Shown here piece by piece: positions 237 to 35,119 of a stretch of DNA of 64,000 nt. The notes under the pieces were generated by a model, which was given only the letters and a program-made list of their open reading frames with translations, ran no database searches and was not told where the DNA came from. This DNA comes from Patescibacteria group bacterium. GTDB lineage: Bacteria; Patescibacteriota; UBA1384; XYA2-FULL-43-10. The number at the start of each line of letters is the position of its first letter. Within the stretch, counting starts at the first letter, position 1. The DNA is taken from assembly GCA_041674405.1 (NCBI GenBank), contig JBAYVT010000001.1, positions 1,012 through 65,011 of the forward strand, read 5' to 3'. The position numbers and the translations under genes were made by a program.

Positions 237-423
237 TCTTGCTCCTAAAAATTACTTTTGTAACCAAAAGTTTAACAAAAAATAGAATATACTTCAAACA
301 TATCTTTACTCTGTTTATTTCTCCTTAAAAAAAATTTCTTGTTTGTTTATATCAAAATATCAAAACGACCCAACTAAAATTCGCGCTGGATCATTTTGAA
401 GAGCTCAAAATATTAGAAAAGAG

Positions 424-582
424 CTACATCTCTTTATTCGAACCCGCACCCCAAAATCCTAGAATTGCAATAATGAGGCCGGTAATTACCAAAACCCATT
501 TGTTTGCTGCGCTGGACATGTTGAGATATGGTTCGATAATCACCCATATGCCCAGAATACCAATTACCCAAGCTTGCCACAT
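424..582 (-). CDS. Small 2-TM membrane protein (52 aa)
   Basis: ATG at 582 sits 7 nt after an aaaggagc SD. Translation is MWQAWVIGILGIWVIIEPYLNMSSAANKWVLVITGLIIAILGFWGAGSNKEM, two hydrophobic helices. It lies immediately downstream of the heliorhodopsin on the same strand. Confidence 0.35.
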   Translation of the reverse strand: MWQAWVIGILGIWVIIEPYLNMSSAANKWVLVITGLIIAILGFWGAGSNKEM

Positions 583-691
583 ATTAGCTCCTTTCCTAAA
601 TTATTCGACCTTTTCTCGATCTTATAACAAAGCTAGAGCTAATTCTTCAGTAGATTCTACAATGCACCAACGCTGGGTTATTGATACTTGC

Positions 692-1453
692 TTACGGGCG
701 CAGCGTTCCGGCGAAGACTTGCCAAGCAAGCAAAGATTTGGCGACTAAACTCAGTATTATGTATGCCCTTTCGCCATAAAGATAATCCGCCCACTTGCCA
801 ACTTTTTTGTATTGTAGAATTTGGTTTATCGCAAAGCTGTTGAAGAAAACAAAGATTGAAAAATAAATCCAGTAGACAAAATCTGGTGCTTTGTTCTCTC
901 CACCGCCGGCACCGAATAAATATATCGCGATAGCCGCCCAAGGAATGATTCCGGCGATACAGCCAAAAACAAACGAAGTCCAATTTGTCTTTTCTGTTGA
1001 CTGGTTATGAAGCTCCATCATCCAACCAAAAAGAATCATACTTGCATTGACACCGACAAAGGCAATTAAAGTTGCAATATCATAAATACCAACCAACATG
1101 GCGATAACGACGATCATCAAAGATGAAGAAATCGAGTATTCAATCCAACGGAAAAAGTTGATGTGCTTCGCTAAATTCTTATTGTAAATTGCATTCAAGC
1201 CCGGCAGAGTGATTAAAAGGTGAAAAAACGCCGAGAGAAACAAAAATGATGCAACCAAGGGGCCAATTTTCAGATCAGCCAAAGTTTCCGGCGTTGGCAC
1301 TAACTTTTTGACTGCGACATCAAATTTCAAAAATGATGCCGTAACCGGCAACGAGAACGTGCTCGAAACAATAAGCATCACAATGCCTTGTCCAAGATGC
1401 AGAAGAAACATAACAAGGTTGAATTTGCGCAGACCCTTAAGTTTTGCTTCCAT
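692..1453 (-). CDS. Heliorhodopsin (7-TM retinal protein, inverted topology family)
   Basis: 253 aa with 7 predicted TM helices. The last helix carries SxxxK (LSLVAKSLL), the heliorhodopsin Schiff-base lysine motif. Long matches to motifs I recall from heliorhodopsin 48C12: RWIEYSISSSLMIVVIA, GVNASMILFGW, FGCIAGIIPW, FFNSFA, LQYK, GERAYIILSLVAKSLLAWQVF. A GGAGG SD sits 5 nt upstream of the ATG. Confidence 0.8.
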   Translation of the reverse strand: MEAKLKGLRKFNLVMFLLHLGQGIVMLIVSSTFSLPVTASFLKFDVAVKKLVPTPETLADLKIGPLVASFLFLSAFFHLLITLPGLNAIYNKNLAKHINFFRWIEYSISSSLMIVVIAMLVGIYDIATLIAFVGVNASMILFGWMMELHNQSTEKTNWTSFVFGCIAGIIPWAAIAIYLFGAGGGENKAPDFVYWIYFSIFVFFNSFAINQILQYKKVGKWADYLYGERAYIILSLVAKSLLAWQVFAGTLRP

Positions 1454-1470
1454 ACAACCTCCCCATTATT

Positions 1471-2235
1471 TTATCTTTCAATTTCCTGGCGCTTAAATAT
1501 GAAAATCGAAATTATCATAAAAAGTATGATGATTGCGATTGTGGTGATCAACGACGGCAAATAATCATGTGGGGAAAGGCCGGTAAAAATGTCTTTGTAA
1601 TTTGTCATTATATTACCTGGCAAAATTTTTTTGATTTCCTTGATAAGAGAAAGAATTATTGTGATTACTATCTGAATGCCGAACGAAATAAATGCGGCAA
1701 CAATTTGATTGCTTGTAAATGCGCTGCATAGAATTGTGGTTGCTGTGATGAAAAGGAGATAAACAAAAAATATTGATGCAAGCAATGAGAAAAGAGCGAA
1801 TGAAAATGATCCAAAAATGACAATGGTGTAGGCGTAAAAAATAAGTGACGAAGCGATATAGATCACCGCAAGCACTGAATAAGCGGCAAAAAATTTAGAA
1901 AGAACAAACTTTGCCCTCGAGACCGGTTTGGTGAGAACAACTTCAAGAGTTTTTTTATTCTTTTCCTCGGCGATGATACCAGCAAAGACAAACACCAAAA
2001 CTAATAATGCGATTTGGCTTATATTTTTGACAAACTGATCGATGGAATCTCTCCATGTTGGCTCGGGCAATTGAATTGAAAGACCCGGAGTTTGTGGAAT
2101 ATTTTTTAAGAGCTCGGGCGTAATTTTAGCTAGTGCTGGTGAGGCAAAAGCAATGAAGAGAAACAAAATTACTAAAATTAGTAACTTCTTGGTTCTTATT
2201 ATTTCTAAAATTTCTTTTCCAAATAGTGCATTCAT
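1471..2235 (-). CDS. ABC-2 family transporter permease
   Basis: 254 aa, 6 TM segments, N-terminal cytoplasmic stretch. Start overlaps the stop of the upstream ABC ATPase (ATGA-type coupling). Typical ABC-2 exporter permease architecture. Confidence 0.7.
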   Translation of the reverse strand: MNALFGKEILEIIRTKKLLILVILFLFIAFASPALAKITPELLKNIPQTPGLSIQLPEPTWRDSIDQFVKNISQIALLVLVFVFAGIIAEEKNKKTLEVVLTKPVSRAKFVLSKFFAAYSVLAVIYIASSLIFYAYTIVIFGSFSFALFSLLASIFFVYLLFITATTILCSAFTSNQIVAAFISFGIQIVITIILSLIKEIKKILPGNIMTNYKDIFTGLSPHDYLPSLITTIAIIILFMIISIFIFKRQEIER

Positions 2236-3161
2236 TATTTCCCCTTTCTGACCAAATCAAGGAATAAATCTTCGATTTCTGGAAGTTTGATGCCATAAGA
2301 ATAAATACCGACCGACTCATCGGCAAAAAATTTAATCGGTAGATTTTTCCTTACATCATCTTCACTTCTTAGCCAAATTTTAGCAGACGTAGCATCAACT
2401 TCGACCCTGAGTGCCCACGGTACCTTTTTTAGCTTGGGAACGAGTTTAGCCGGATTTTCGGAAAATTCGACGTACAATATCAGCTTGGTGTATTTTTCTT
2501 TAAGTTCCGGTAAGGACGAGGCAGCAGCGATCTTGCCCTCATTTATAATTACGACATCGTCGCAGATTTTATCGACATCAGAGAGAATATGGGTGGATAG
2601 AAAAATCGTCTTATTGGCTGAAAGTGTTTGAATAACGTTCAAGACTTCTTTGCGTCCGATCGGGTCCAAGGCAGAAACCGGTTCGTCGAGGATCAAAATT
2701 TTCGGGTCATTAATAAGCGCTTGGGCAATGCCGAGGCGCTGTTTCATGCCGCCCGAGTATGCGCCAATACGTTTATTTTGGGCATTTTCAAGGTTGACGA
2801 GTTTTAAAACCTCGGTGATCTTGGTTTTCTGCTGCTTTTTAGAAATGTTGAATGTGTCAGCAATAAATGAAAGATATTCTTTTCCCTTCATCCAATTGTA
2901 AAATGCCGGAAGTTCTGGCAAGTAGCCGAAAAGATTATTTAGCCCAGAATTACCGAATTCAATTTTATTGTCATTTAGTGATATTTCGCCGGAGGTTGGC
3001 TTTGAAAGTCCGACGATCATCCGAAGCGTTGTCGTCTTTCCTGCCCCGTTCGGCCCGAGAAAACCGACAACACGGTTATTCTCAACATTAAATGAAATAT
3101 TATCGACAGCGGTGAAATTGCCAAATTTTTTTGTAAGATTTTTGACAGATATTACGCTCAT
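2235..3161 (-). CDS. ABC transporter ATP-binding protein
   Basis: Walker A GPNGAGKTT, Q-loop, ABC signature LSGGMKQRL, Walker B ILILDEP, H-loop LSTHIL. C-terminal about 90 aa extension typical of ABC-2 exporter ATPases. Confidence 0.9.
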   Translation of the reverse strand: MSVISVKNLTKKFGNFTAVDNISFNVENNRVVGFLGPNGAGKTTTLRMIVGLSKPTSGEISLNDNKIEFGNSGLNNLFGYLPELPAFYNWMKGKEYLSFIADTFNISKKQQKTKITEVLKLVNLENAQNKRIGAYSGGMKQRLGIAQALINDPKILILDEPVSALDPIGRKEVLNVIQTLSANKTIFLSTHILSDVDKICDDVVIINEGKIAAASSLPELKEKYTKLILYVEFSENPAKLVPKLKKVPWALRVEVDATSAKIWLRSEDDVRKNLPIKFFADESVGIYSYGIKLPEIEDLFLDLVRKGK

Positions 3162-3367
3162 TCTTCATCCGTTCTTCCGATCAATAGATATAGAATCGGG
3201 CCGATAATATTGATCAAGATAATTATCAAAAGCCAAGCGACGGGTGATAAGTTTTTTGTTTTCCATTTGCGAGCCAAGTCAACTACGGCGTAGACCATAA
3301 GCCCAAGCTCGATAATGGCTATTGGCAGCGCCAAAAGCAAAATTTGTGAAACATTTGTAGTATCCAT
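3158..3367 (-). CDS. PLDc_N-like small membrane protein (2 TM)
   Basis: 69 aa, two TM helices with a basic loop (DLARKWKTKNLSP) between them. Resembles small PLD-nuclease-N-terminal-domain proteins commonly encoded upstream of ABC-2 ATPases. Overlaps the ATPase start by 4 nt. Confidence 0.45.
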   Translation of the reverse strand: MDTTNVSQILLLALPIAIIELGLMVYAVVDLARKWKTKNLSPVAWLLIIILINIIGPILYLLIGRTDEE

Positions 3368-3404
3368 TTGACTCCTTGATTACAATGAAATCATATCAGA
3401 GCAA

Positions 3405-3842
3405 TTATGACTTAGTAAAGCCTGTAAATTGACCTAAAGCCAAAATGCAAAAGTCAAGATAATAAGTTAAAATCAATAAAGTTTTTCCTTCATTTTCCTT
3501 GGCACGGGACAGAAGGAGATGAGTAATTAGTTTCTTTGGAATTTTTTGGTTAAATTTTATCTGAATAGTTTTCTTGCCGGTGGCATAGCCCATAGTTTCT
3601 AATTCTTGGCGGGATTTATCATCGAGAACGAATGCTAAACCGAAAGCTATGTGATTTTTGAAAGTGGAGAAACCAGCTAAGAGACCATGATACTTATAAA
3701 ACGGCACTCCCCAGCTGATGGATTCTGAGGCATTGGGCACTGCGGATTTAATAACAGATCTAATTTCTCTCGAGATTGGCTGTGCTTCATCTGGAGTATT
3801 CTTGATGTATTCATCCACATTTTTTGCTTCATAATTTCTCAT
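3405..3842 (-). CDS. DUF1801 (YdhG-like) domain protein
   Basis: 145 aa. Pattern DEYIKNTPDEAQPISREIRSVIKSAVPNASESISWGVPFYKYHGLLAGFSTFKNHIAFG matches the YdhG/DUF1801 fold consensus from memory. Confidence 0.55.
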   Translation of the reverse strand: MRNYEAKNVDEYIKNTPDEAQPISREIRSVIKSAVPNASESISWGVPFYKYHGLLAGFSTFKNHIAFGLAFVLDDKSRQELETMGYATGKKTIQIKFNQKIPKKLITHLLLSRAKENEGKTLLILTYYLDFCILALGQFTGFTKS

Positions 3843-3931
3843 GTACCAATCCGATATTTGATTAATTATTAGCTCGAGAATATAATTATATTGTTTTTAT
3901 ATCAATGTAGATTTTCCTAAGGGAGGGAAAA

Positions 3932-5056
3932 ATGAGAAAGTTCTCAATTGCTATTGTGGCGGCGCTCATGCTGTCGTTATTTGGCTTTTCAGGTCCGGAG
4001 AAGGCAAAGGCCGACACAGTGATTGCACCGCCGTGTAATTTTTCCTCACAGACGCTTCTTGGAAGCAATTATCTGGCTCAGACTTTTGTGCCTGGTGTGG
4101 ATAATATTGATAATGTTGGAATTTTGGTCGGAAATTTCAGTGCTAGTTCGGTAAAATTTAATCTGATGCTGACTGGACCGAACGGACAAGTTCTTGCAAC
4201 ACGACCGACTTCGCTTTCCGGTAATTTCGCTTGGCCATATCGTTATATTGATCCTCAATTTTCGATTCCATCTACAAGGACTGGAACATATGTGATCTGG
4301 GTCTACCCATATACCGGATATGAAAATAATGAATTATATGTAAAAGGTTCTGCATTTAGTGATGAGAGCTGTTATCCGAACGGCGGAGCATATCAAAATA
4401 TTTTTACCAATTTACACCGTGATTTTAGCTTCGTAGTTTTTGGGCACAATAATGATGCTTCAGCTCCCGAAGTAGTTGAAGCACCAGCAGACCAACAACC
4501 GCCTGTCGATAATCAGTCTCTGCCAGCTGCTGACCAGCCGTCTGGAACATCTTCTGATACAGCAACGACAAACGCAACAGAAAAGTCGAGCAATTCACCA
4601 AAAGATTTGACTGCCAAATGGGACGAAAACGCAAACGCGGTAAACTTGTCATGGAGTGTGTCGTCACTTTCCGGGCTTAGCGGATATGAAATTTATAAAA
4701 CCAATTCGACCGAGAACACATTCTCCAAGCTTGGGACGACAACCAAAGACGTTCTTTCTTACCAGGACAAAGATGTCAAATACGGAGAGTCGTATTTGTA
4801 TTATGTTGTTGGGGTGGCGGGAACAGCTGTTTCTGATAGTTCCAACACAGTCTCGTTCCTTGTTGATGATCAAGGCATAAAGCCATCGACTCCGCTTCCC
4901 GGTGAACAAAATGAGAGTTTTTGGCAAAAGGTTGGAAATAATATCGTAAATAATCAAGTATATTTGCTTGGGGCATCAGCATTGCTCTTAACTCTTCTCC
5001 TTATTCTTGAGGTTATTGAACGAATCCGAAAACGATCTCAAAAGAATCGTCTCTAG
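3932..5056 (+). CDS. Secreted/cell-surface protein with fibronectin type III domain and C-terminal TM anchor
   Basis: N-terminal signal peptide (MRKFSIAIVAALMLSLFGFSGPEKAKA). Ser/Thr/Pro-rich linker. FN3-like segment (LTAKWDENANAVNLSWSV...YEIYKTNSTEN...YLYYVVGV). C-terminal hydrophobic helix plus basic tail (LLGASALLLTLLLILEVIERIRKRSQKNRL). GGGAGGGAAAA SD before the ATG. Confidence 0.6.
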   Translation: MRKFSIAIVAALMLSLFGFSGPEKAKADTVIAPPCNFSSQTLLGSNYLAQTFVPGVDNIDNVGILVGNFSASSVKFNLMLTGPNGQVLATRPTSLSGNFAWPYRYIDPQFSIPSTRTGTYVIWVYPYTGYENNELYVKGSAFSDESCYPNGGAYQNIFTNLHRDFSFVVFGHNNDASAPEVVEAPADQQPPVDNQSLPAADQPSGTSSDTATTNATEKSSNSPKDLTAKWDENANAVNLSWSVSSLSGLSGYEIYKTNSTENTFSKLGTTTKDVLSYQDKDVKYGESYLYYVVGVAGTAVSDSSNTVSFLVDDQGIKPSTPLPGEQNESFWQKVGNNIVNNQVYLLGASALLLTLLLILEVIERIRKRSQKNRL

Positions 5057-5071
5057 AAAATTAAGGTTGCT

Positions 5072-5111
5072 AAATTCAAAGATCCGCCTAGCTAGGCGGA
5101 TCTTTGAATTT
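5072..5111. terminator. Perfect 40-bp palindrome (aaattcaaagatccgcctag|ctaggcggatctttgaattt); likely bidirectional terminator or operator
   Basis: Read directly: 20+20 nt perfect inverted repeat immediately after the stop of the FN3 gene, followed by TTTG on the plus strand. Confidence 0.5.
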
Positions 5112-5137
5112 GTTGCCCGTTATATTTTGTATGTAGA

Positions 5138-5166
5138 TTGACACACGATCAATATTGTGTTATTAT
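5138..5166 (+). promoter_or_regulatory. Sigma70-like promoter TTGACA-N17-TATTAT
   Basis: Consensus -35 TTGACA (5138-5143), 17-nt spacer, -10 TATTAT (5161-5166). It sits directly in front of the high-GC island at 5170-5690. Confidence 0.45.
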
Positions 5167-5209
5167 TCGCCAGTGTCGGACTACTACTTCGCAGCCATGG
5201 AGGATTATC

Positions 5210-5635
5210 TTGAAACCCGAAGAAGTGAAAGCATTGGCAAGTTGTTTTGTCAATCGGTGTGAGCAAGCGTTCGTCGACAATCCGCAGGGCCCGCAACTGC
5301 GCGTGTTCGAAAGAGGTGGACGATGGTATGCGGGTGTGATCCTGCGTATTTGCCGAGATATCGACACCTCAGTTGTGCTTGTAGTGCTAAGTGAGCATTT
5401 GCAGCTTGAGGTAGTCGAGGAAATCAAGCGAATGCGCCCCGGGGTCGATGTCGTGACGATCGCAAGATCTGTGAGAGTCAGAGTGTCATCCTTTGTTGCG
5501 CGACTGGAATCCGGCGTATTGCTTTGCTTGACCGGAAGGCAAGCCGGTTTCCTCCAGTCGCTTCTCGTCACACTACCCGTGAGCGCAATTCCCCTCGCAC
5601 TCAGCCGCACAACCGAATCCGCAGCCGGCAACTAG
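5210..5635 (+). CDS. Hypothetical protein in high-GC island A (alternative reading: structured ncRNA)
   Basis: GGAGGA SD (5199-5204) is followed 5 nt later by a TTG start in frame with a 141-codon ORF ending at TAG 5633-5635. GC is about 57% against about 35% for the flanks. The antisense strand is also open, as expected at high GC. No family recognised. Confidence 0.35.
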   Translation: MKPEEVKALASCFVNRCEQAFVDNPQGPQLRVFERGGRWYAGVILRICRDIDTSVVLVVLSEHLQLEVVEEIKRMRPGVDVVTIARSVRVRVSSFVARLESGVLLCLTGRQAGFLQSLLVTLPVSAIPLALSRTTESAAGN

Positions 5636-5690
5636 CCGGTACTGAAGTACTGGGAGAGCACGGCTTCGCCGTGCTCCTTTCAGTTATTAG
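5634..5690 (+). terminator. Multi-hairpin terminator incl. 9-bp stem with UUCG tetraloop (gagcacggc-ttcg-gccgtgctc)
   Basis: Hairpins at 5634-5651 and 5656-5677 are followed by a T-rich tail ctttcagttattagatcgttttt. Confidence 0.45.
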
Positions 5691-5704
5691 ATCGTTTTTA
5701 AGAG

Positions 5705-5917
5705 TTACATATGCAAAAGTGTAAAAACCTTGTAAATCAGAAGCGCGGGCCAAACGATTGCTTTCAGAAAGCCTAAGACCCCCCACCAAAACGTATCTGC
5801 TTGCTGAATAAAATACACTGCAGCGCCGATGAATGCCAGTCCGTAAGCACCACCAAATATTCCATTGGCGCTTCCCTTGCCTTTACTAACCTTCAATTCA
5901 CATTTTTCTTTTGCCAT
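5705..5917 (-). CDS. Small membrane protein (70 aa, 2 TM)
   Basis: aagggagaa SD before the ATG. Translation MAKEKCELKVSKGKG...GLAFIGAAVYFIQQADTFWWGVLGFLKAIVWPALLIYKVF. Confidence 0.45.
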   Translation of the reverse strand: MAKEKCELKVSKGKGSANGIFGGAYGLAFIGAAVYFIQQADTFWWGVLGFLKAIVWPALLIYKVFTLLHM

Positions 5918-5977
5918 AATTCTCCCTTATTAATTATATTTAGAATATACATCACAAGTATTGGTGACGAAAATATT

Positions 5978-6160
5978 TTATTCTCCAATATCATCTTTCA
6001 ATTTCCTTATAGACATTGCTCGGATATCTTTGAGAGCAATCACTCGCCCATCTCCAAGGAGAACCTTACCGCTTTTATGGTCAGCAAATTTGCCTGTGGT
6101 AACCTCACCGGTCCGATACTTTATCCAGATAGTAGTACCTTTAGGGTAACTTGTATGCAT
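5978..6160 (-). CDS. Hypothetical small protein (about 60 aa)
   Basis: Internal ATG at 6160 overlaps the stop of the upstream gene by 4 nt (ATGA coupling). Translation MHTSYPKGTTIWIKYRTGEVTTGKFADHKSGKVLLGDGRVIALKDIRAMSIRKLKDDIGE. Confidence 0.3.
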   Translation of the reverse strand: MHTSYPKGTTIWIKYRTGEVTTGKFADHKSGKVLLGDGRVIALKDIRAMSIRKLKDDIGE

Positions 6161-6162
6161 AT

Positions 6163-6873
6163 TTAGGGCTTTTTTGGAGTTATTGTTGCCAAACAATCTT
6201 TTTGGTCAAATGTTCCTATTCCAATCTGGCGTACAGACATGCCTTGATCGTCATTTACATCATGGATTAGGCCCTCATTGGTTGCAATTGTGCGCAAGCT
6301 AGAAACAAGAATGATTGCATTTTCACGTTGCTCTGGTGGTATTTCAGCAGTAAGACCATTTTTGGCTTCGTAATAATCACTCATCCAGTAATACTCTGGT
6401 TTCGGCGATTCAGAGGGTTGTGTAACCCGAAAAAACAACACGAGATCAGGATTTATTTTTTCATCACCAAGCGCTTCGAGGTTAACTTGATATCCAGTCT
6501 CACTTTGCCTTACTTGTCCATCGTTATGAGGTGTTTCGGGTATAGTGACCTCTTTACCCAAGAAACCGCTTACATCTCCACCCCATCTTTTTTTACGCGC
6601 TTTATAAGCAAAATCTGAAAAAGCCATTGAATGAGCAATCAGTTCTGCCATTCTATTATCGGAAGATCTGATATTCTCGGGCAATGATTCGTAAAGGTCC
6701 GGATCTTCAAAATACTCCGCCACCATGGGGTTTATTATTATTCCTTGAGCTTTCAAAAAATCACAAATCTTTAATACCTGTTCTTCTGCTTTTTTCTCAC
6801 GATCAATAGGAGGCAATTCTGCGCTATTGAAAGGAGATTGTTCAACACTACCGTAGTCATTTGCTTTTCTCAT
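6163..6873 (-). CDS. Hypothetical protein (236 aa, soluble)
   Basis: Long ORF with AT-rich codon usage typical of the host. No family recognised. Confidence 0.5.
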   Translation of the reverse strand: MRKANDYGSVEQSPFNSAELPPIDREKKAEEQVLKICDFLKAQGIIINPMVAEYFEDPDLYESLPENIRSSDNRMAELIAHSMAFSDFAYKARKKRWGGDVSGFLGKEVTIPETPHNDGQVRQSETGYQVNLEALGDEKINPDLVLFFRVTQPSESPKPEYYWMSDYYEAKNGLTAEIPPEQRENAIILVSSLRTIATNEGLIHDVNDDQGMSVRQIGIGTFDQKDCLATITPKKP

Positions 6874-7018
6874 ACTATCCTTTTATTTGGCTATTAAGAC
6901 CATGCCGGTAATAATTAAACATATTGCTAAAAATTCCGTTCGCCAGGAATAAAAAAGTAATTCAGTTCACATTTATATTCTCATAATATGAAAAATAATT
7001 GAACTGGAATGCCTGAAT

Positions 7019-8887: not shown

Positions 8888-10144
8888 CTAGTTTGCTTCG
8901 ACAAAAGTGAGCGCAAATCCCTTATTATTCCCTCTTCCAGTGCGGCCGATCCGGTGAATATAGTCATTATAGGTCTGGGGAATTGTGTAATTGATAACAT
9001 GCGAGACATTACTGATGTCAAGTCCGCGCGCGGCGACATCTGTGGCAACAAGAATTTGAATTTGGTCATCGCGAAATTTTGATAGCGCCTTCTGGCGTTG
9101 GTTTTGGCGCTTGTCTCCGTGGATAGAATCGGCTCGAAATCCACTCTCTGCGAGATTTTTAGTGAGTTTTTCCACATCGCGCTTGGTCTCTGAGAAAATA
9201 AGGACCTTTTTGGAGCCTTCTTTTGATAAAATATCTGTCAATCGATTGAACTTATTATCAGCGTGCACTTTTACAATATCTTGGTCGACATTTGCCGCTG
9301 TCTCACCAGTGATGGTTTTTACAATGACAGGGTTAATTAAAAATTCACGGACAAGAGTCTCGATTTTTATCGGTAGCGTTGCAGAGAAAAACAGCGATTG
9401 ACGTTTGTCTGGAAGCTCGGCCAGAATTCGTTTAATTTCATCGACAAAGCCCATATCGAGCATCCGATCGATTTCATCGAGAACAATATTTTGAAAAAAT
9501 GAAAAATTAATATTGGCCCGGTCTTTTAGATCCTTGAGACGTCCGGGAGTACCAATGACGAAATTGGGATGGCTGCGGAGATCTGATATCTGGCGGTAGA
9601 TAGGTACGCCGCCGACGCAAATTGCCGAATATATTCCCATGCCTTTGGCAAATTTGCGAAATTCGACATTTATCTGCTGGGCAAGTTCGCGAGTTGGCGC
9701 AATGATAAGAACTTTTTGATTCTTGTCGCGAAAGCATTTATCGATTAAAGGTAGCAAAAATGCCGCTGTCTTCCCAGTCCCCGTATTGGCAAGTCCTAGA
9801 ATATCGCGACCGGACATAACATGCCCGATCGATTGGTCTTGAATTGGAGTTGGAGTTTCGTAACCGATTTCCTTCAAGTTCATATTAATTTTTTGTGAGA
9901 AAGAAAAATCAGCAAAATTGTGAATAATTTTTACGTGATTCGTGGCGGTGTTTGGAACTGCCTTTTTTACAAAGCGCTGAATATCAATCACTTCACCCCT
10001 GTTGTGTCGACGAGAATTTTGTGAGTTTGAGTAGCGCGGACGTGAACTGAATTTTCCGTGAGCAGGCTTACTAAAATTTGGTTTTCCGAACCGGGAAAAT
10101 CCACGATCAAAAGAACGTTTTTGGTGAGATCTAAAATTTTGCAT
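8888..10144 (-). CDS. DEAD-box ATP-dependent RNA helicase
   Basis: Q-motif region, motif I GTGKTAAF, motif II VLDEIDRML (DEID variant), SAT, HRIGRTGR. Arg/Ser/Gly-rich N-terminal extension. Confidence 0.85.
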   Translation of the reverse strand: MQNFRSHQKRSFDRGFSRFGKPNFSKPAHGKFSSRPRYSNSQNSRRHNRGEVIDIQRFVKKAVPNTATNHVKIIHNFADFSFSQKINMNLKEIGYETPTPIQDQSIGHVMSGRDILGLANTGTGKTAAFLLPLIDKCFRDKNQKVLIIAPTRELAQQINVEFRKFAKGMGIYSAICVGGVPIYRQISDLRSHPNFVIGTPGRLKDLKDRANINFSFFQNIVLDEIDRMLDMGFVDEIKRILAELPDKRQSLFFSATLPIKIETLVREFLINPVIVKTITGETAANVDQDIVKVHADNKFNRLTDILSKEGSKKVLIFSETKRDVEKLTKNLAESGFRADSIHGDKRQNQRQKALSKFRDDQIQILVATDVAARGLDISNVSHVINYTIPQTYNDYIHRIGRTGRGNNKGFALTFVEAN

Positions 10145-10407
10145 ACAATTTCCTACGCGAGATTTCGCGTTAATATTAAAACTTCGAATAGCTCTTTAAG
10201 AACGTCGAAGTTTTAATTCGGAAATCTAAAGAACGATTTCGAGACTTCGAAAGTATATCATTAATTAGTATTTAAGTCAAGGATTGTATCTCGATGAATT
10301 AAGAGGTTGTAAGCTTGATGATTGCTCAAGTTGTACCAGTATGAATTGAAAATAATCAATTTCTAAAGGTTAAAACCAATGCGGGCCAATTAAAACACAA
10401 ATAAAAA

Positions 10408-10445
10408 GACCAGAGGAATTAAATAAATTAATTGCTCTGGTCTTG
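10408..10445 (-). terminator. Rho-independent terminator of high-GC gene B
   Basis: gaccagag...ctctggtc 8-bp stem followed on the minus strand by a TTTTTATTTGTGTTTT run. A second 8-bp hairpin (gctccgac/gtcggagc) lies at 10447-10469. Confidence 0.5.
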
Positions 10446-10501
10446 CTCCGACAAACGTCGTCGGAGCACCAGTACCACCTCCAGTTCACCAAGACTTGAC
10501 G

Positions 10502-10993
10502 CTACAGCGCCGGCGGCTGCGGCATGCCGCAGCCAATCATTACGATACCCACGCTGCCTGCGGGTGCAGCCTCCATGATGCGCTCGACGGTGCACTGCGG
10601 GCAGGTGCATGTGGACTTGTCCCTCGTCCAGACCTTCCAACCTGCCGCGACTCCGTAGTGCCGCTCGCCGAAAAGGCCGAAGACAGCCTTCATCTCGTAG
10701 TCGTAGATGTCCGTGATGAGCTTCACCCGCGCTGCATGCTCGAGGCACTGGCGCAGGAAGTCCTTGTTGTCGTCTGTGTCCTGTTCCTCGATCTCATCGA
10801 GTTTCTTCAAGATGCCCTCGGCCTCCGGCCGGAAGCTCTCGATGAGGCTGTACAGGCGCTTCAGCTCCTCGGGCAGGTCCCCGATCACATTGGCGTTCTC
10901 CGGGATCGGACCCTCGGGCTCGATTAGCTCAACTACTCCCATGCCAGCCAGTACGTCCTGAATCTTTAACATCGACATCACCTTTATTTTCAC
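10502..10993 (-). CDS. Hypothetical protein, high-GC island B (163 aa, acidic, CxCPxC motif)
   Basis: GC about 60% ORF with coherent protein-like composition. C-terminal KSTCTCPQC. The first about 12 codons are AT-rich. Confidence 0.5.
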   Translation of the reverse strand: MKIKVMSMLKIQDVLAGMGVVELIEPEGPIPENANVIGDLPEELKRLYSLIESFRPEAEGILKKLDEIEEQDTDDNKDFLRQCLEHAARVKLITDIYDYEMKAVFGLFGERHYGVAAGWKVWTRDKSTCTCPQCTVERIMEAAPAGSVGIVMIGCGMPQPPAL

Positions 10994-11027
10994 TGCCGAT
11001 CGTTATCAGTCAGTGCCCCCTTGCCAC

Positions 11028-11077
11028 CTTTCGGGAGCAAATAATCGGAAATAATTCCAAACATTTGCTCCCGAAAG
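11028..11077. promoter_or_regulatory. 15-bp perfect inverted repeat with 20-nt loop (ctttcgggagcaaat ... atttgctcccgaaag), 35 nt upstream of gene B start
   Basis: Read directly. Located in the C-B intergenic region on the minus-strand transcript. Could be a terminator/attenuator or an operator. Confidence 0.35.
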
Positions 11078-11244
11078 ATTGAATAATATTAACATATTAA
11101 TTCTGATCTGTCAACGATCGTGAATTGTAGTGTTTCTTGCCTTCGGTTGGCATAATCACACAATATACTTAAATTACAACCCTCTTAATCAAAGAACGAA
11201 CCGGCACGCCGATTCGCTCAATGATCATCCCCTCTTTTCCAGTT

Positions 11245-11880
11245 CTAGTGGCTCCTGCCCCCTCGGCCTCGGTCCTTTGCGCCGCGCGTATCCTTGCCCT
11301 GAAGAGCAAGGCGCTTCTGCTTGTCGGCGCGCCTCTTCTTTTGCTCGTCGGTCGGCGATTTCTTCTTGCCCAAGATTCGCTCCTGGGTCGGCGATTTCCT
11401 CGCTTTCTCCTTGGCAAGAAGCGCGCGAACTTCGCGCTTAACCCAGCCATCAAGGCGGTCCAGGTGGACATCCCGTTCCTCCACGCAGACGACCTGGAAG
11501 AGAAGCGGATCGGTCTTCTGGATGGAAACGCATACCTGCGTGTAGCATCCGTTCCGGTGGTAGATGACGCGGCCGGCGGTGATGAAGCACACCGACTGCG
11601 GCTCCTTGTCCGGGTTGGTTGCGGTTGTGCTCGAGGCAATTCCCTCCTTCTGGTCGTCCAGGTGGATGCGGTCCGTATTTGTGGGTACGCTCACATCCAT
11701 CAGGTTGACGAAGAGTCTCGCCTTGGGGATCCGCGCCATAGCTTGAGGAATCCGATACATCCCGTTGCCCTGGTCGGCAAGCTTGACGAAGAGCCGCTGC
11801 CCGACTACCAAGCAGGCAAGCCTGTGATTGTGGATAATGGCGGCATTGCCATTGTTCCGTGAAACCGCGAAATACAGCAT
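11245..11880 (-). CDS. Hypothetical protein, high-GC island C (about 211 aa) with highly basic Lys/Arg-rich C-terminal tail
   Basis: AGGAGG SD 6 nt before the ATG at 11880. Globular N-terminal region, then a tail KEKARKSPTQERILGKKKSPTDEQKKRRADKQKRLALQGKDTRGAKDRGRGGRSH. GC about 58%. Confidence 0.5.
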   Translation of the reverse strand: MLYFAVSRNNGNAAIIHNHRLACLVVGQRLFVKLADQGNGMYRIPQAMARIPKARLFVNLMDVSVPTNTDRIHLDDQKEGIASSTTATNPDKEPQSVCFITAGRVIYHRNGCYTQVCVSIQKTDPLLFQVVCVEERDVHLDRLDGWVKREVRALLAKEKARKSPTQERILGKKKSPTDEQKKRRADKQKRLALQGKDTRGAKDRGRGGRSH

Positions 11881-12066
11881 TTTTTCCTCCTGAGTATTGG
11901 TGTGATTGCGGCGATATTGTTTTAACATAAATTGTTTAGTTTGTAAACCTTTAAAAAGGATGTAAACACAAAAACACCGCCGGTGTTCAGGGCGGTGTTT
12001 TAATATAGAATCAGGCTAACTATTTCGATGTATAGGAAATTCCCTTCGACTTCGCTCAGGGCGAGA

Positions 12067-14715
12067 CTATTTGGAAGTATAGCTGATTCCGGATTTCGCG
12101 GCGATTACGGCTTGTGCAGCGGCAAGTCTGGCGATTGGGACGCGATATGGTGAGCAGGAAACATAATTCATCTTTACTTTGTGGCAGAAGTGAATTGTGG
12201 TAGGATCTCCGCCGTGCTCTCCACAGATGCCGACTTTCAGATTCTTCTTTGATGATCGGCCTTTCTCGATCCCAATCTCAACCATTTTGCCGACACCGTC
12301 TTGGTCGAGAGTTTGGAATGGATCAGCGTCAAAGATGCCAATTTCCTTGTAAACTTTGATGAATTTGCCGGCGTCGTCGCGGGAGAAGCCCATTGTCATT
12401 TGGGTTAAGTCGTTGGTTCCGAAGGAGAAGAATTCAGCTTTCTCAGCGATCTCGTCTGCAGTTACAGCGGCTCGTGGAACTTCGATCATTGTGCCAACCT
12501 TATAGTCGATCTTGGTTTTGTATTCGGACATGACTCGGGTAGCAGTTTCATCAACAACTTTCTTCTGGTTCTCAAACTCCTTGACATTGCCTACAAGCGG
12601 GATCATGATTTCCGGAACGATCTTAAATCCATCTTTCGCAAGTTCGCAAGCGGCAGAGATGATAGCTTCAGCCTGCATCTCGGTGATTTCCGGATATGTA
12701 ATTCCGAGGCGGCAACCGCGGTGGCCAAGCATCGGATTGAATTCGTGCAAATCTTCAGAAACCTGTTTGATCTTGGATTCAGAAATACCGATTTTTTTCG
12801 AAAGAGCTTTGACATCCTCGTTTGTCTTTGGCAAAAACTCATGCAAAGGCGGGTCCAAAAGACGGATGGTTACCGGAAAACCCTTCATTTCGCGGAAGAG
12901 GCCAAGGAAATCTTCTTTCTGGAAAGGTAAGAGCTTTTTCAAGGCTTTTCTTCTTTCGTCTTCGGTATCGGCAAGAATCATCTGTTGCATGAATGGAAGG
13001 CGCTTCTCGTCGAAAAACATGTGTTCGGTGCGGCAGAGGCCGATGCCTTCGGCGCCAAATTCTCGAGCGGTCTTGGCATCAGTCGGCGTGTCTGCATTGG
13101 TGCGAACTCCGAGGACGCGGGTTTTGTCAGCCCAGCCCATGAGAGTCTTGAATTCGGCTTTGATCTCCGGCTCGATTGTTTTGACCTCGCCAAGGATGAC
13201 TTGGCCGGTAGAGCCGTTTAGGGCGATCCATTCCCCTGCTTTGACTGTATATGAACCAACAGTAAATTTCTTCGCTTTTTCATCAATCTTTATATCACCG
13301 CAGCCGGCAACGCATGTTTTGCCCATTCCGCGGGCAACAACTGCGGCGTGGCTGGTCATACCGCCGCGGCAGGTCAAGATTCCCTGTGCTGCGTACATGC
13401 CGTGGATATCATCCGGTGAGGTCTCAGCGCGGACCAGGACGACCTTTTCGTTGTCGCCAAGTTCGGCAGCGGTATCTGCGTCGAAAACGACCTTACCGAC
13501 AGCGGCACCGGGAGAGGCCGGAAGTCCCATTGCGATAACCTCAAGCGTAGCTTTCGGATCGATGACAGGGTGCAAAAGCTGGTCGATAGTTTCCGGTTCT
13601 AGCCGCATTACAGCTTCGTCTTCTCCGATCATTTTCTCTTTGACCAAATCAACAGCGATCTTGACAGCAGCTTGGGCAGTTCTTTTGCCGGTTCTGGTCT
13701 GTAACATGTAGAGCTTGTTTCTTTCGATGGTAAACTCAAAATCCTGAACATCTTTATAATGTTTTTCAAGTTTGTCTGTGATTGCCTTGAGCTCTGTAAA
13801 TGCTTTTGGCATCTCCTTCTTGAGATCGGCTATCGGGTGCGGCGTGCGTACGCCGGCTACAACATCTTCGCCCTGTGCATTGGTAAGGAATTCACCGTAG
13901 AACTCCTTATCACCAGTGGAAGGATTTCTAGTGAATCCGACGCCGGTGGCGCAGTCATCACCCATGTTGCCGAAGACCATTGCCTGGACATTTACGGCTG
14001 TTCCCAAATTGTGAGGAATGTTATTCAAGTTTCTGTAAGTATTGGCTCGGTCATTGCCCCAGCTCTCGAATACCGCTTTGTAGGCCATTTCAAGTTGTTT
14101 AGCCGGATCCTCTGGAAATTCTTTGCCGGTCTCTTTCTTGACCAATTTTTTATATCCGTCGATCACATCTAGAAGATCGTCGGCGGTGAGGTCGGTATCA
14201 AGTTTAGCACCGGCTTTGTCTTTGACAAGATCTAGAACATGTTCAAATTTGTCTTTGTCGATAGCAAGTACGACATTTCCGAACATCTGGATAAATCTTC
14301 GGTAGGCGTCGTGAGCAAATCGGGAATTCCCGGTAAGCTCGGCCATGCCTTTGACAGTTTCATCGTTCAAGCCAAGGTTTAGGATCGTATCCATCATACC
14401 CGGCATCGAGAACTTGGCGCCGGAACGGACGGAGAGAAGGAGCGGATTTTTGGCGTCGCCGAATTTTTTTCCGGTTGACTTTTCAACTTTTGCAAGCATT
14501 GGTGCAAGCTCGGAGTCAAAGTCCTTCGGCAGTTTCTTGCCGTTGTTGTAATAGTAATTGCACATTTCGGTCGTGATAGTAAAACCTGATGGGACCGGAA
14601 CGCCTAAATTCGACATTTCGGCAAGGTTTGCGCCTTTACCGCCCAAGAGAGCTTTCATTTCCGCTTTGCCTTCGGCTTTTCCGTCACCGAAATAATAGAT
14701 GTACTTCGTACTCAT
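12067..14715 (-). CDS. ppdK: Pyruvate, phosphate dikinase
   Basis: 882 aa. N-terminal ATP-grasp (GGKGANLAEM). Central phospho-His domain (GGMTSHAAVVARGMG). C-terminal PEP-utilising TIM barrel (CGEHGGDP). Confidence 0.9.
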   Translation of the reverse strand: MSTKYIYYFGDGKAEGKAEMKALLGGKGANLAEMSNLGVPVPSGFTITTEMCNYYYNNGKKLPKDFDSELAPMLAKVEKSTGKKFGDAKNPLLLSVRSGAKFSMPGMMDTILNLGLNDETVKGMAELTGNSRFAHDAYRRFIQMFGNVVLAIDKDKFEHVLDLVKDKAGAKLDTDLTADDLLDVIDGYKKLVKKETGKEFPEDPAKQLEMAYKAVFESWGNDRANTYRNLNNIPHNLGTAVNVQAMVFGNMGDDCATGVGFTRNPSTGDKEFYGEFLTNAQGEDVVAGVRTPHPIADLKKEMPKAFTELKAITDKLEKHYKDVQDFEFTIERNKLYMLQTRTGKRTAQAAVKIAVDLVKEKMIGEDEAVMRLEPETIDQLLHPVIDPKATLEVIAMGLPASPGAAVGKVVFDADTAAELGDNEKVVLVRAETSPDDIHGMYAAQGILTCRGGMTSHAAVVARGMGKTCVAGCGDIKIDEKAKKFTVGSYTVKAGEWIALNGSTGQVILGEVKTIEPEIKAEFKTLMGWADKTRVLGVRTNADTPTDAKTAREFGAEGIGLCRTEHMFFDEKRLPFMQQMILADTEDERRKALKKLLPFQKEDFLGLFREMKGFPVTIRLLDPPLHEFLPKTNEDVKALSKKIGISESKIKQVSEDLHEFNPMLGHRGCRLGITYPEITEMQAEAIISAACELAKDGFKIVPEIMIPLVGNVKEFENQKKVVDETATRVMSEYKTKIDYKVGTMIEVPRAAVTADEIAEKAEFFSFGTNDLTQMTMGFSRDDAGKFIKVYKEIGIFDADPFQTLDQDGVGKMVEIGIEKGRSSKKNLKVGICGEHGGDPTTIHFCHKVKMNYVSCSPYRVPIARLAAAQAVIAAKSGISYTSK

Positions 14716-14893
14716 AGTAGATTCCTATTTAATAATGACGAAATTATATTAGCAAAAAATTATTTTAAGATCAAATATCCTTTATTTATAACATTCCCAA
14801 ATATTTGAGATATCTGATCAAATGATAGACAAATCCGGTAAAATATGTTAAAAAAGATTGCGCACATCATCCAGCACCCAACAGGAGAAAACC

Positions 14894-15679
14894 ATGATCC
14901 CGATGTACCTGAAGGATATTCCGATCGGTCCACATGTGGGTAAGGTGGTTGAAGAGTTCGATTCCGACACAGAGACACGCTACAGCATCCTGTCGGGCGT
15001 GTTCAACAACCAGGGATATATCCTCTCCCGCGAGGATGTAGAGGAAGAGTTCGGCAAGAACTCGTGCCTCCTTGACTTCATTTCACACGTTCATCTGCGC
15101 GAGCAGATGGCTGGATTAACCTTGTGGCTCAAGACTTTCGTCGCAGAAGTGAGAGGCGAAGGCGCTGCTCGTGTCATGTTTCCCGAATTTGAAGAGCACA
15201 ACGCACGAATACACTTGTTGCGAAGCGAGTGGATTCGCCACGAGGCCATTCGGGAGGCTACCAACGACGCGCTGAAAGCCCTGGCGGAATGCATGCGATG
15301 GTTCAACATTCAGATGGTGGCGGGATGGATCCAGCGCACCCTGACGGATGTGCTGGAACAGATGGAAATCTGCATGGATTTCGATGCATTCGAAGTGCCG
15401 CGGCAGTGTTCGTTGCTCGACGATCTGGCGTATCGTATGGGCAGAAGCGAGATGCGGTCGTCATGCGCCCGCGCCTACAACAGCCTGGCTGTCGCCTGTG
15501 AGTCGAGCCCGATCTTCAAAGACGTGGTGCTTCTTCCTCCCGAAAAGATTGTTCGTCTCGGACAGTGGCGCATGGGGCTGATCCAAGATCCGGGTCTTGT
15601 CCCAGAAGAGAAGCCCGAGGAGGACGAGGACGATTACGCCCTGAACGAATCCGGCATATTCGTGCCGAAGAAGAAGTGA
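14894..15679 (+). CDS. Hypothetical protein, high-GC island D (about 261 aa, acidic C-terminus)
   Basis: AGGAGA SD 5 nt before the ATG at 14894 (MIPMYLKD...). GC about 57%. Ends EEKPEEDEDDYALNESGIFVPKKK. Confidence 0.5.
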   Translation: MIPMYLKDIPIGPHVGKVVEEFDSDTETRYSILSGVFNNQGYILSREDVEEEFGKNSCLLDFISHVHLREQMAGLTLWLKTFVAEVRGEGAARVMFPEFEEHNARIHLLRSEWIRHEAIREATNDALKALAECMRWFNIQMVAGWIQRTLTDVLEQMEICMDFDAFEVPRQCSLLDDLAYRMGRSEMRSSCARAYNSLAVACESSPIFKDVVLLPPEKIVRLGQWRMGLIQDPGLVPEEKPEEDEDDYALNESGIFVPKKK

Positions 15680-15734
15680 TAGGAGGTGGAGAGCCGTGAG
15701 CGGACCTGTGTGGCCCGCTCTTGGCGTTTTAAAA

Positions 15735-16208
15735 CTAATTAATTATAACCCCGCCGATGAAGTTCTGTGAGAATACGACTTCATCCTTATATTCAATATA
15801 TTCGTTGTCTGCAAAGTCTTCGATATTTCCAGTAAGTGCGCTAAAGTATTCAAAATTGCCATCATGAAAATGCTGGGGCCCACGGAAAGGTGATTCCGGA
15901 TCCATCGCAAGAAGAGCCGTTTTTAAAAATTCGATCGTCTTTTTCGTGAGTTCTTTGTCGCCGTGGTGATCAAAAGCCATGCCACCGGCGTATGCCATTG
16001 CCCAAACAGGCTTGCCTTCGAAATAAACGATCTCCTGCCCAGGGGCGAAATAGTGTCCTGTATATGAATCGTGAAACAGCCAATCCCCTTCTTTGTATTC
16101 AATCTCGTCAAAACCTTGGCGCTGCGGTGAGACTTCATTGCCATCACCAGCGTAGCCGTTTTTATTGGCTTCGTATAAAAATTTTTTTAATTCATCTAAA
16201 TTAATCAT
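15735..16208 (-). CDS. Hypothetical conserved protein (157 aa)
   Basis: Soluble. Host-like AT-rich codon usage. No confident family assignment. Confidence 0.5.
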   Translation of the reverse strand: MINLDELKKFLYEANKNGYAGDGNEVSPQRQGFDEIEYKEGDWLFHDSYTGHYFAPGQEIVYFEGKPVWAMAYAGGMAFDHHGDKELTKKTIEFLKTALLAMDPESPFRGPQHFHDGNFEYFSALTGNIEDFADNEYIEYKDEVVFSQNFIGGVIIN

Positions 16209-27412: not shown

Positions 27413-29014
27413 ATGTTTGAAAATAATCTATTTAAACGTTCCAAAAACAACGGCTTTAAAAAGTCTCCGCTTGTGTTGATTGTTTTAGATGGTTGGGGAA
27501 TCGCCCCGTCTTGGGGAGGAAATGCAATAACATTATCATCTACTCCGGTGTTTGATGGTCTCTTGCGTGAATATCCATCCACCGCCCTACAAGCTTCTGG
27601 CCTAGCTGTTGGCCTTCCGGACGGCGCGCCTGGCAACTCTGAAGCTGGACATTTAAATATCGGGGCTGGAAGAATTGTACACCAAGATATCTCACTTATC
27701 GATTCAGCGATAGAAAACGGAGATTTTTTTAAAAACGATATTCTCCGTGAAACATATGAACATGCAGAAAAAAACGAGAGCAACATTCACATTATGGGGC
27801 TCTTGTCTGATGTTGGCACGCATAGCCACATACGGCATCTGGATGCATTGCTTAAGTATTTTAAAGATAAAAATTTTAATCGGATATACATTCATCTTTT
27901 TTCTGATGGCAGAGATTCTGATCCGATGTATGGAATTGAGCTAATTGGCAAGGTTAACAAAATAATTGAAGGCGCTGGTATTGGCAGGATCGAATCTATC
28001 ATGGGCCGTTTTTATGCAATGGACCGCGATAACCGCTGGGGGCGCACAGCCCGTGCTTATAATTGTTTTGTCCGATCTGAGGCAGAATCGGTAGAAAACG
28101 CTAACGAAGTTTTTTCCAGATCATATGCTGCTGGCACAACCGATGAATTTATTGAGCCAAGAATAATTAATAATAAAAATTTTCATTTCGTTCCCATCCG
28201 GGATAATGATTCAATAATAATTTTTAATTTTAGATATGACAGGGTCAACCAACTAATTGATTGTTTCGTTAAAGATTCGATTGATCGCTTTCCCGACCAT
28301 AGAAAGCTCCAAAACCTTTTTGTTTCTTCCTTTGCGAACAGCTCTGATATGACAAAATTTAAAACGATTATACAAGCTCCTAAAATAGAAAATCCGATTG
28401 CCAAAGTTTTATCAGAAAACGGCTTGAAGCAATTACATATTGCTGAAACAGAGAAATTTCCTCATGTAACCTATTTTTTTAATGGTGGCATTGATGAGGC
28501 AAACAAGAATGAAGACCGGTTAAGAATTCCCTCGCCCAAGGTTCGAACATACGACCTTAAGCCTGAAATGAGTGCCGATAAGGTTTTAAAGTCTGTACTC
28601 TCTGCGCTGAATAAAAATATTTATGATTTTTATGTTGTAAATTTTGCCAATCCTGACATGGTGGGCCATACCGGAAATTTAAAGGCTACCATGCACGCTG
28701 TTTCGTTCGTCGACCAGTGCCTTGGACAGATAATACTTAGTATCCAGAGTAAAAACGGAACCGCGGTAATATGCGCTGACCATGGTAACGCCGAACAAAT
28801 GGTTAATCCGCAAACCGGTGATCCGGATACGGAACACACGACCAATCCTGTTCCGTTTATTGTGGTAAGTGATAATTTGAAAGATAAAATTTCACTCAAC
28901 TCAAACGGCTCGTTATCAAATATTGCCCCGAGTATTTTGGATCTTTTGAATATAGATGTTCCAAATGAAATGAAAACCAAAGAAAGTTTAATCATAAAAC
29001 GGGAGATGATTTAG
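27413..29014 (+). CDS. gpmI: 2,3-bisphosphoglycerate-independent phosphoglycerate mutase
   Basis: LIVLDGWG, catalytic Ser in GNSEAGHLNIGAGR, metal ligands NPDMVGHTGN and CADHGNAE. Confidence 0.9.
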   Translation: MFENNLFKRSKNNGFKKSPLVLIVLDGWGIAPSWGGNAITLSSTPVFDGLLREYPSTALQASGLAVGLPDGAPGNSEAGHLNIGAGRIVHQDISLIDSAIENGDFFKNDILRETYEHAEKNESNIHIMGLLSDVGTHSHIRHLDALLKYFKDKNFNRIYIHLFSDGRDSDPMYGIELIGKVNKIIEGAGIGRIESIMGRFYAMDRDNRWGRTARAYNCFVRSEAESVENANEVFSRSYAAGTTDEFIEPRIINNKNFHFVPIRDNDSIIIFNFRYDRVNQLIDCFVKDSIDRFPDHRKLQNLFVSSFANSSDMTKFKTIIQAPKIENPIAKVLSENGLKQLHIAETEKFPHVTYFFNGGIDEANKNEDRLRIPSPKVRTYDLKPEMSADKVLKSVLSALNKNIYDFYVVNFANPDMVGHTGNLKATMHAVSFVDQCLGQIILSIQSKNGTAVICADHGNAEQMVNPQTGDPDTEHTTNPVPFIVVSDNLKDKISLNSNGSLSNIAPSILDLLNIDVPNEMKTKESLIIKREMI

Positions 29015-34876: not shown

Positions 34877-35065
34877 TTGGTGGACCCGATCAGACATTAG
34901 AACCCGTTTCACTCTTTCGAAACCCTCGGTTCCGAATAACCTCCTATACGGGCAACTCTTGTTTCCCGACCCCTTCCGGAGCTCAAGCCTTCTCTTTGGG
35001 GAGAACAAATTAAAATAGAGTCGCAAGGACTCATTTTATTCTGGTGGACCCGATCAGGCTTGAAC
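34869..35065. repeat. 24-bp direct repeat (ttttatt[t/c]tggtggacccgatcag) duplicating the tRNA-Ala 3' end; att-like
   Basis: Copies at 34869-34892 and 35042-35065, 1 mismatch, bracketing about 150 bp. The second copy is the real tRNA-Ala 3' end plus 8 nt downstream. Confidence 0.5.
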
Positions 35066-35119
35066 TGACGACCTCCTCGATGCCATCGAGGCGCTCTAGC
35101 CAACTGAGCTACGGGCCCA
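35042..35119 (-). tRNA. tRNA-Ala (anticodon GGC), CCA encoded
   Basis: Hand-folded: acceptor gggcccg/cgggtcc, D-arm gctc-agttggcta-gagc, anticodon stem cctcg/cgagg with loop atGGCat, T-arm gtcag-ttcaagc-ctgat, discriminator A, CCA. Confidence 0.8.

Follow-up and report, generated by a model that had tools for sequence, protein, structure and literature searches.

The window analyzed here, a 64,000-nucleotide stretch of Patescibacteria group bacterium contig JBAYVT010000001.1, carries near its start a gene for a heliorhodopsin (HeR) that lies directly behind the permease gene of an ATP-binding cassette (ABC) transporter of the ABC-2 kind. HeR function is only partly solved, and the partners shown to date are glutamine synthetase, photolyase, and one ABC exporter. 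Five genes on the minus strand make up the unit, encoding in order a PLDc_N protein, an ABC ATPase, an ABC-2 permease, HeR, and a 52-amino-acid (aa) membrane protein resembling the SPW family (Table 1). All five open reading frames (ORFs) were found where the first-pass annotation had placed them.

Table 1 The HeR unit and its borders, listed from 5′ to 3′ along the minus strand.
Feature	Position	Strand	Evidence or remark
70-aa small membrane protein gene	5705..5917	-	70-72% identical homologues; no Pfam family
Promoter-like site, TTTACT-18-TATGAT with TG	3390..3419	-	Consensus scan; 23 nt 5′ of the PLDc_N start
PLDc_N 69-aa protein, two helices, first gene of the three-gene cassette	3158..3367	-	PF13396, 4.8e-11
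ABC ATPase, 308 aa, C-terminal extension, DrrA/GldA-like	2235..3161	-	PF00005 (ABC_tran), 9.3e-32
ABC-2 permease, 254 aa, 6 transmembrane helices, predicted type V ABC fold	1471..2235	-	PF12679 (ABC2_membrane_2), 2.2e-17
Permease–HeR spacer, 17 nt, aataatggggaggttgt, with GGAGG Shine-Dalgarno for HeR	1454..1470	-	Sequence reading
Heliorhodopsin (HeR), 253 aa	692..1453	-	PF18761, 9.6e-104; NF038020, 350 bits; TaHeR, 4.7e-78
SPW-like membrane protein, 52 aa, encoded at the 3′ end of the unit	424..582	-	PF03779, 2.5e-5, below gathering score
Terminator-like hairpin, 15-bp stem, U-rich tail, after the 52-aa gene	349..399	-	Fold z-score -3.83

The PLDc_N and ATPase genes overlap by 4 nt (ATGA, 3158–3161) and the ATPase and permease genes by 1 nt (TAATG, 2235), in line with the overlaps of 1–4 nt described earlier. 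The HeR start follows the permease stop after 17 nt rather than the 16 nt first counted, and its spacer does provide HeR with a Shine-Dalgarno sequence of its own. No terminator-like site was found in a scan between permease and HeR, and a consensus scan of the same interval returned no promoter-like site better than chance. The hairpin past the 52-aa gene was matched in folding by 0 of 200 shuffles. Given the overlaps, the short spacer, and a terminator only beyond the last gene, the unit resembles a single five-gene transcript in which HeR is penultimate, and the earlier proposal of one operon that includes the small ORF is borne out by the shared strand, the tight spacing, and the placement of the hairpin. 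The accompanying term “translationally coupled” suits the three overlapping upstream genes; for HeR, the separate Shine-Dalgarno sequence and the 17-nt gap speak for co-transcription, and coupling is not demonstrable from them. The region contains 15 promoter-like sites, not above the 11.6 ± 3.5 of shuffled sequences, so the site at 3390–3419 is weak evidence for where transcription starts. The spacer between HeR and the 52-aa gene (583–691) forms a hairpin as well (z = -2.19), in which the Shine-Dalgarno sequence of the 52-aa gene is base-paired, and translation of this small protein could be controlled there.

Profile searches confirmed that ORF 692–1453 encodes a heliorhodopsin. The protein scores 346.4 bits against the Pfam family (cutoff 26.7) over profile positions 1–242 of 242, and 350.5 bits against the NCBIfam equivalog NF038020 (cutoff 100). 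It aligns end to end with the crystal-structure sequences of TaHeR (53–54% identity) and 48C12 (E = 2.3e-67; 46–47% identity), which extends the motif similarity to 48C12 claimed at first sight to the full length. In the alignment, H19, H78, E105, S235, and K239 correspond to TaHeR H23, H82, E108, S234, and K238. The helix-7 motif S-x-x-x-K reads SLVAK (S235–K239), with K239 as the Schiff-base lysine, as had been anticipated, and E105 as the counterion. Whatever the gene neighborhood, these residues are invariant or nearly so: K239, S235, and E105 are kept in 165 of 165 aligned HeRs, and H19 and H78 in 163. Many cytoplasmic-loop positions are likewise invariant among the 36 closest homologues.

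An AlphaFold2 (AF2) model (mean predicted local distance difference test score, pLDDT, 79; predicted template-modeling score, pTM, 0.76) has seven long helices and an A–B beta hairpin (strands 34–45 and 50–62). Foldseek places it at a template-modeling score (TM-score) of 0.92 to TaHeR (PDB 6IS6) and 0.87–0.89 to the 48C12 structures, as compared with only 0.5–0.67 for type-1 rhodopsins. The helix count is taken from this model and from the crystal-structure alignment, as a simple hydropathy scan detects just five of the seven. Full-length homology, the seven helices, the A–B hairpin, and the His/His/Glu/S-x-x-x-K set are all shared with TaHeR and 48C12 (PDB 6SU3/6UH3), and the core shows no notable difference; residues peculiar to the clade of the window HeR (F76, F77, H97, F100, F101, and A222) lie mostly on the cytoplasmic side. 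By homology, the protein is predicted to be a retinal-binding photoreceptor with inverted topology, a slow photocycle, and no ion pumping. As such it is an ordinary, intact family member and is not new, because an identical protein is already named in NCBI (MFA7243675.1, “MAG: heliorhodopsin HeR [Patescibacteria group bacterium]”) and HeRs are known from bacteria of the Candidate Phyla Radiation (CPR), in which SLVAK is the commonest helix-7 motif (PMC9166423).

The three genes upstream of HeR form a cassette, PLDc_N–ATPase–permease, that is conserved in Patescibacteria. The PLDc_N protein has two hydrophobic segments, and its gene stands directly 5′ of the orthologous ATPase gene in seven other contigs (L082, L165, L168, L169, L170, L172, and L004). 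The ATPase carries the expected motifs (Walker A, G36–T43; signature, YSGG135; Walker B, ILILDE155; H-loop, STH189), and its nearest NCBIfam models, GldA, DrrA, and lantibiotic-protection ATPases, all score below their cutoffs. Six hydrophobic segments were found in the permease. A phmmer search of the PDB with the permease gave no match, and NosY was reached only by profile and fold searches: a profile of 37 homologues matches NosY (7o0y) at 2.9e-6, and the AF2 model (pLDDT 90.6) has NosY as its best fold (TM-score 0.73), followed by PmtCD and ABCG5/8/2. On this modeling the permease is assigned to the type V class of ABC folds. It is just 15–19% identical in sequence to NosY, and the NosD and NosL partners of the NosFY system are missing here. 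The unit lacks a gene for a substrate-binding protein, as would suit an exporter, though this does not prove export. A small PLDc_N-type membrane protein, YxlE, presumably precedes the ABC genes yxlFG of Bacillus subtilis as well. A literature search on PLDc_N together with ABC systems returned nothing relevant. YxlFG itself is classed as a type V exporter whose function is not known (PMC11466899).

The link between HeR and this cassette was described at first as “fixed”. In an effort to determine how far it extends, we compared the window with the loci of the closest HeRs from 80 species-representative genomes and 80 metagenomes (58–77% identity) and with contigs of the nearest database homologues, six of which, with HeRs 78–94% identical to that of the window, form a close-relative set. 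The cassette lies tightly 5′ of HeR in L082 (HeR 81% identical), L083 (83%), and L165 (82%), with permease–HeR spacers of 38, 17, and 37 nt, respectively, each containing GGAGG. The other three depart from this arrangement. L164 (84%) has a DUF362/Fer4 gene between permease and HeR. In the partial L168 (78%), 339 nt of GC-rich DNA that include an antisense ORF and a GC hairpin form the spacer. In L081, the sister of the window (94%), an IS200-like Y1 transposase gene stands directly 5′ of HeR, and no ABC cassette is present in the 1.3 kb available upstream. Past the transposase gene come a terminal hairpin with a perfect 16-bp stem and a promoter-like TTGAAA…TATAAT-like spacer (the stretch at 491–1277 of L081), and then intact HeR and 52-aa genes.

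A neighbor-joining tree of the contigs with full-length HeR, from which the partial L168 was left out, unites the window, L081, L082, L083, L164, and L165 in one clade. Loci whose HeR is 76–77% identical (L001, L084, L163, and L167) have unrelated neighbors. Downstream of HeR the relatives have in common a DsbA-like protein (70–71% identical), NusA (89–90%), and an 825-aa protein (82–86%). This shared block shows the relatives to be close kin that inherited the whole syntenic region, and the cassette–HeR junction is conserved no better than HeR–DsbA–NusA. Read in this way, the link is young, of single origin, and broken or loosened in three of the seven genomes. The expectation of a conserved neighborhood holds for L082, L083, and L165, and fails at the inserted gene of L164, the spacer of L168, the transposase of L081, and the distant loci: the orthologous cassette is adjacent to HeR at 0 of the 160. 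“Fixed” is accordingly too strong a word for a link confined to one group of close relatives and broken in L081. On the gene order and spacing, we take co-transcription of HeR with the ABC-2 cassette to be real in the lineage of the window and specific to it.

The 52-aa ORF matches SPW (PF03779) with 25.1 bits, below the cutoff of 31.5, over half a repeat length only. It is judged to be a real gene, as had been suspected, because it is conserved in two relatives (L081 and L082, 75–79% identity) with an excess of synonymous over non-synonymous codon differences (20:11, 18:13, and 17:13). It is missing in L083 and L165. In L175, from a second sample, HeR and the cassette are identical, the 52-aa ORF is truncated (3546–3704), and NusA is split into two calls (5219–6398), through either assembly frameshifts or decay. 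Homologues of the 70-aa protein are encoded immediately 5′ of PLDc_N in L082 (3769–3984) and L165 (1185–1418). The window copy is set off from the cassette by ~2.3 kb that hold a DUF1801 gene, a divergent 374-aa fn3 gene, and a GC-rich island with an ORF. The 70-aa gene, which closes this stretch (window 3405–5917), is possibly the ancestral first gene of the unit, into which the 2.3-kb segment looks to have been inserted.

The GC-rich island itself (5200–5800; GC 0.52–0.55, against ~0.39 around it) carries a long ORF on each strand (5138–5635, plus; 5149–5631, minus), and its plus strand folds with z = -3.06, with a GC hairpin past the ORF. We considered an RNA gene here and rejected it, as there is no Rfam match; there is no Pfam match either, and the island is possibly foreign DNA. 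Further upstream, window 10000–16000 has raised GC (0.48–0.50) and contains ORFs with no Pfam family at 11245–11928 and 14858–15679. The pyruvate phosphate dikinase (PPDK) gene of the window lies in this region (12067–14715); in L168 a PPDK gene stands immediately 5′ of the cassette.

Across the wider HeR set the cassette and HeR occur apart. The orthologous cassette was found within 5–6 kb of HeR once in the 160 loci, in L004, where it lies 3.3 kb downstream behind genes on the opposite strand. All three cassette genes, without any HeR gene in the surrounding 5 kb, are present in L169, L170/171, and L172/173 (Berkelbacteria, Saccharibacteria, and one further contig), with permeases 51–55% identical to that of the window. 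A general association of HeR with ABC genes in this CPR-dominated HeR clade was rejected. The flanks, 1.2 Mb in all, contain 18 ABC ATPase genes, with a density of 0.12 per 10 kb in the 1.5 kb next to HeR as compared with 0.17 further out (binomial p = 0.79). Three loci do place HeR beside other ABC genes on the same strand: L030 (Doudnabacteria, 3793–6978) has a DrrA-like ATPase, ABC2_membrane, HeR, and DUF6512; L003 (5325–8796) has HeR, HD_3, an ABC ATPase, and ABC2_membrane_3; and L138 (4980–6902) has HeR, DUF5661, and an ABC ATPase, the contig ending before any permease. Three such lineages is the number expected from the background density. No other widely conserved neighbor emerged, with HD, MazG, DUF998, NUDIX, DUF5661, DUF6512, DsbA, and NusA each near HeR in only one to five loci. 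Bulzu et al. likewise found HeR gene context not to be conserved in a CPR sub-cluster of their CPR-dominated HeR cluster.

These comparisons favor a reading in which the HeR gene came to lie once, in a small Patescibacteria lineage, directly behind the permease of a self-sufficient three-gene cassette, and would now be transcribed with this type V ABC cassette as the penultimate of five genes. The exporter would work alone, as it presumably does in other Patescibacteria, HeR would have the same partner, whatever that is, as its 160 unlinked relatives, and retinal would most likely be taken by the organism from outside. The pairing would then represent shared expression inherited by descent, with HeR and exporter functionally independent and no obligatory photoreceptor–transporter machine. 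We give this reading roughly an even chance.

The chief alternative, which we rate as less likely, is that the exporter is modulated by light, HeR being a regulatory subunit that contacts the type V transporter, perhaps together with the PLDc_N and SPW-like proteins, and light raising or lowering export. That a photoreceptor gates a transporter is a plausible hypothesis with a published precedent. Ten groups of HeR gene context have been published, and in one of them HeR is co-transcribed with ABC genes that precede it (Cho et al. 2024, PMC11109279), several ABC types being mixed in that group. In those of its supplementary tables examined here, no CPR example appears in this group. Its one member studied by experiment, and the sole demonstrated case, is OcHeR of Ornithinimicrobium cerasi, which binds the ABC exporter OmrDE and with light enhances its transport (PMC11109279).

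The OcHeR case heads a series of points that weigh against functional independence. The window resembles it in that helR is on the same strand as, and 3′ of, the ABC genes with short gaps and one predicted promoter, and the window HeR gene is co-directional and predicted to be co-transcribed with its ABC genes, the terminator being placed past HeR and the 52-aa gene. Among the relatives, canonical terminators follow the 52-aa gene (window, L081, and L082) or HeR (L165), insulating these genes from the DsbA-like gene, and such terminators would tie HeR transcriptionally to the cassette rather than to the housekeeping genes further 3′. What lies 5′ of the cassette is different in each relative, having been reshuffled while the cassette–HeR junction persists. 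L030, L003, and L138 represent three other lineages in which HeR is clustered beside unrelated ABC systems, with independent ABC-2 neighbors in the first two and an ABC ATPase in the third.

The HeR sequences add a further point of this kind. Seven residues (A39, F76, F77, H97, F100, F101, and A222) never vary within the linked clade and are rare (<10%) among 159 other HeRs, A222 standing where other HeRs carry K or R. By homology with the TaHeR topology, H97, F100, and F101 lie in intracellular loop 1 (ICL1) and A222 in ICL3, that is, in cytoplasmic loops 1 and 3, and the same loops are those through which OcHeR binds OmrDE (PMC11109279). One and the same branch saw the origin of the linkage and of the ICL1 and ICL3 substitutions. 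We rejected these residues as interface markers, since they are also present in the unlinked L081 and have a single-branch origin, and they cannot discriminate between the hypotheses. They are a lead, not evidence.

Several considerations nonetheless hold the light-modulated exporter to a tentative standing. Its linkage is conserved in one clade of close relatives and not across independent lineages, and with a single origin in close kin this conservation is not independent evidence. L081 keeps an intact HeR with no cassette upstream, and the junction tolerates an inserted gene or 339 nt of spacer that include a GC hairpin. There is no enrichment of ABC genes around HeR, and the cassette is autonomous elsewhere. 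The ABC class also differs from that of the only tested case: OmrDE is a heterodimer of fused half-transporters, each a transmembrane domain joined to a nucleotide-binding domain, with a type I/IV exporter fold, whereas the window encodes a separate nucleotide-binding protein, a six-helix permease predicted to be of type V, and a PLDc_N accessory protein. The cassette does not belong with heterodimeric multidrug half-transporters such as OmrDE and TmrAB. Binding and the effect of light were established by experiment for OcHeR and OmrDE, and the window system is known from its sequence. The sensory rhodopsin pair SRII–HtrII, a paradigm invoked by Cho et al., is similar in that a non-pumping rhodopsin shares an operon with the membrane protein it supposedly controls. 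SRII belongs, however, to another rhodopsin family with the opposite membrane orientation, and the SR–Htr pairing is widespread, whereas that of the window is found in one small clade.

In its most elaborate form, this alternative would make HeR the light-sensing regulatory subunit of a type V exporter complex that includes the PLDc_N and the 52-aa SPW-like proteins, perhaps with the 70-aa protein as well, through which a retinal-auxotrophic episymbiont switches export by light. We consider this elaborated version doubtful. If it were true, HeR control of ABC transporters would extend from one tested type IV exporter to a structurally unrelated second class, and optogenetic or mechanistic studies would gain a compact cassette of five genes from an organism with a minimal genome. 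A single operon in a single genome is not enough to establish a functional link. No paper that connects HeR with an ABC-2/PLDc_N cassette turned up in a literature search, and the novelty of the locus is its type V ABC-2 partner and its Patescibacteria host within an already published kind of HeR neighborhood. The locus is of use chiefly as a well-defined candidate for experiments on HeR function, and it would not surprise a specialist.

An unlikely alternative is that HeR is a redox or oxidative-stress sensor working with the downstream DsbA/thioredoxin-family protein, which would fit the light sensing, proposed for HeRs of monoderms and CPR, that pre-empts photo-oxidative damage. In all relatives whose flank is long enough, the cassette-less L081 among them, a DsbA-like gene lies 0–3 genes 3′ of HeR, redox proteins are enriched near HeRs (Bulzu et al.), and such a role has been proposed for CPR HeRs by Chiriac et al. 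Terminators separate HeR and the 52-aa gene from the DsbA-like gene, however, and of the 160 distant loci a single one, L014, was found to have the DsbA-like gene in the vicinity of HeR (~4.5 kb away, 33% identity). Synteny among close relatives explains the DsbA conservation equally well.

The uptake of retinal from outside, part of the independence reading we favor, is consistent with the gene content of the window. No Pfam family for carotenoid or retinal synthesis was found in window ORFs of at least 200 aa or in several smaller ORFs, in agreement with the first-pass annotation. Four ORFs in this screen had no family at all, the genes present are typical CPR fermentative and housekeeping genes, and 64 kb says little about the retinal genes of the whole genome. 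Rhodopsin-bearing Saccharibacteria lack blh and are proposed to get retinal from their hosts, and HeR apoprotein binds free retinal quickly and unaided (PMC9296517, citing Shihoya 2019).

A last and very improbable alternative is that the type V transporter supplies the chromophore, moving or flipping host-scavenged retinal or a retinoid conjugate for HeR in a retinal auxotroph. The missing synthesis genes, the host supply proposed for blh-less CPR rhodopsin carriers, and the modeled ABCG/ABCA-type permease fold, used for lipid-like substrates, are in its favor, as is ABCA4, which flips N-retinylidene-phosphatidylethanolamine. The unaided uptake by HeR apoprotein, the 160 related HeR loci with no such neighbor, the lack of anything that identifies the substrate, and the unrelated role of NosY, the closest solved relative, argue against it.

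Elsewhere in the window, a gene for a 1434-aa NHL-repeat/fn3/purple-acid-phosphatase-N protein (52900–57204) lies between the L15 gene (57434–57916) and secY (51514–52788), where it interrupts an otherwise conserved ribosomal-protein/secY/adk/map cluster. Tandem paralogues of cofactor-independent phosphoglycerate mutase are found at 27413–30580, the second far more divergent than the first (Metalloenzyme, 1e-35 versus 1.8e-78). ARAGORN predicts a tRNA-Ala(GGC) at 35042–35118, which is weak in Rfam (38 bits, model positions 7–64 only).

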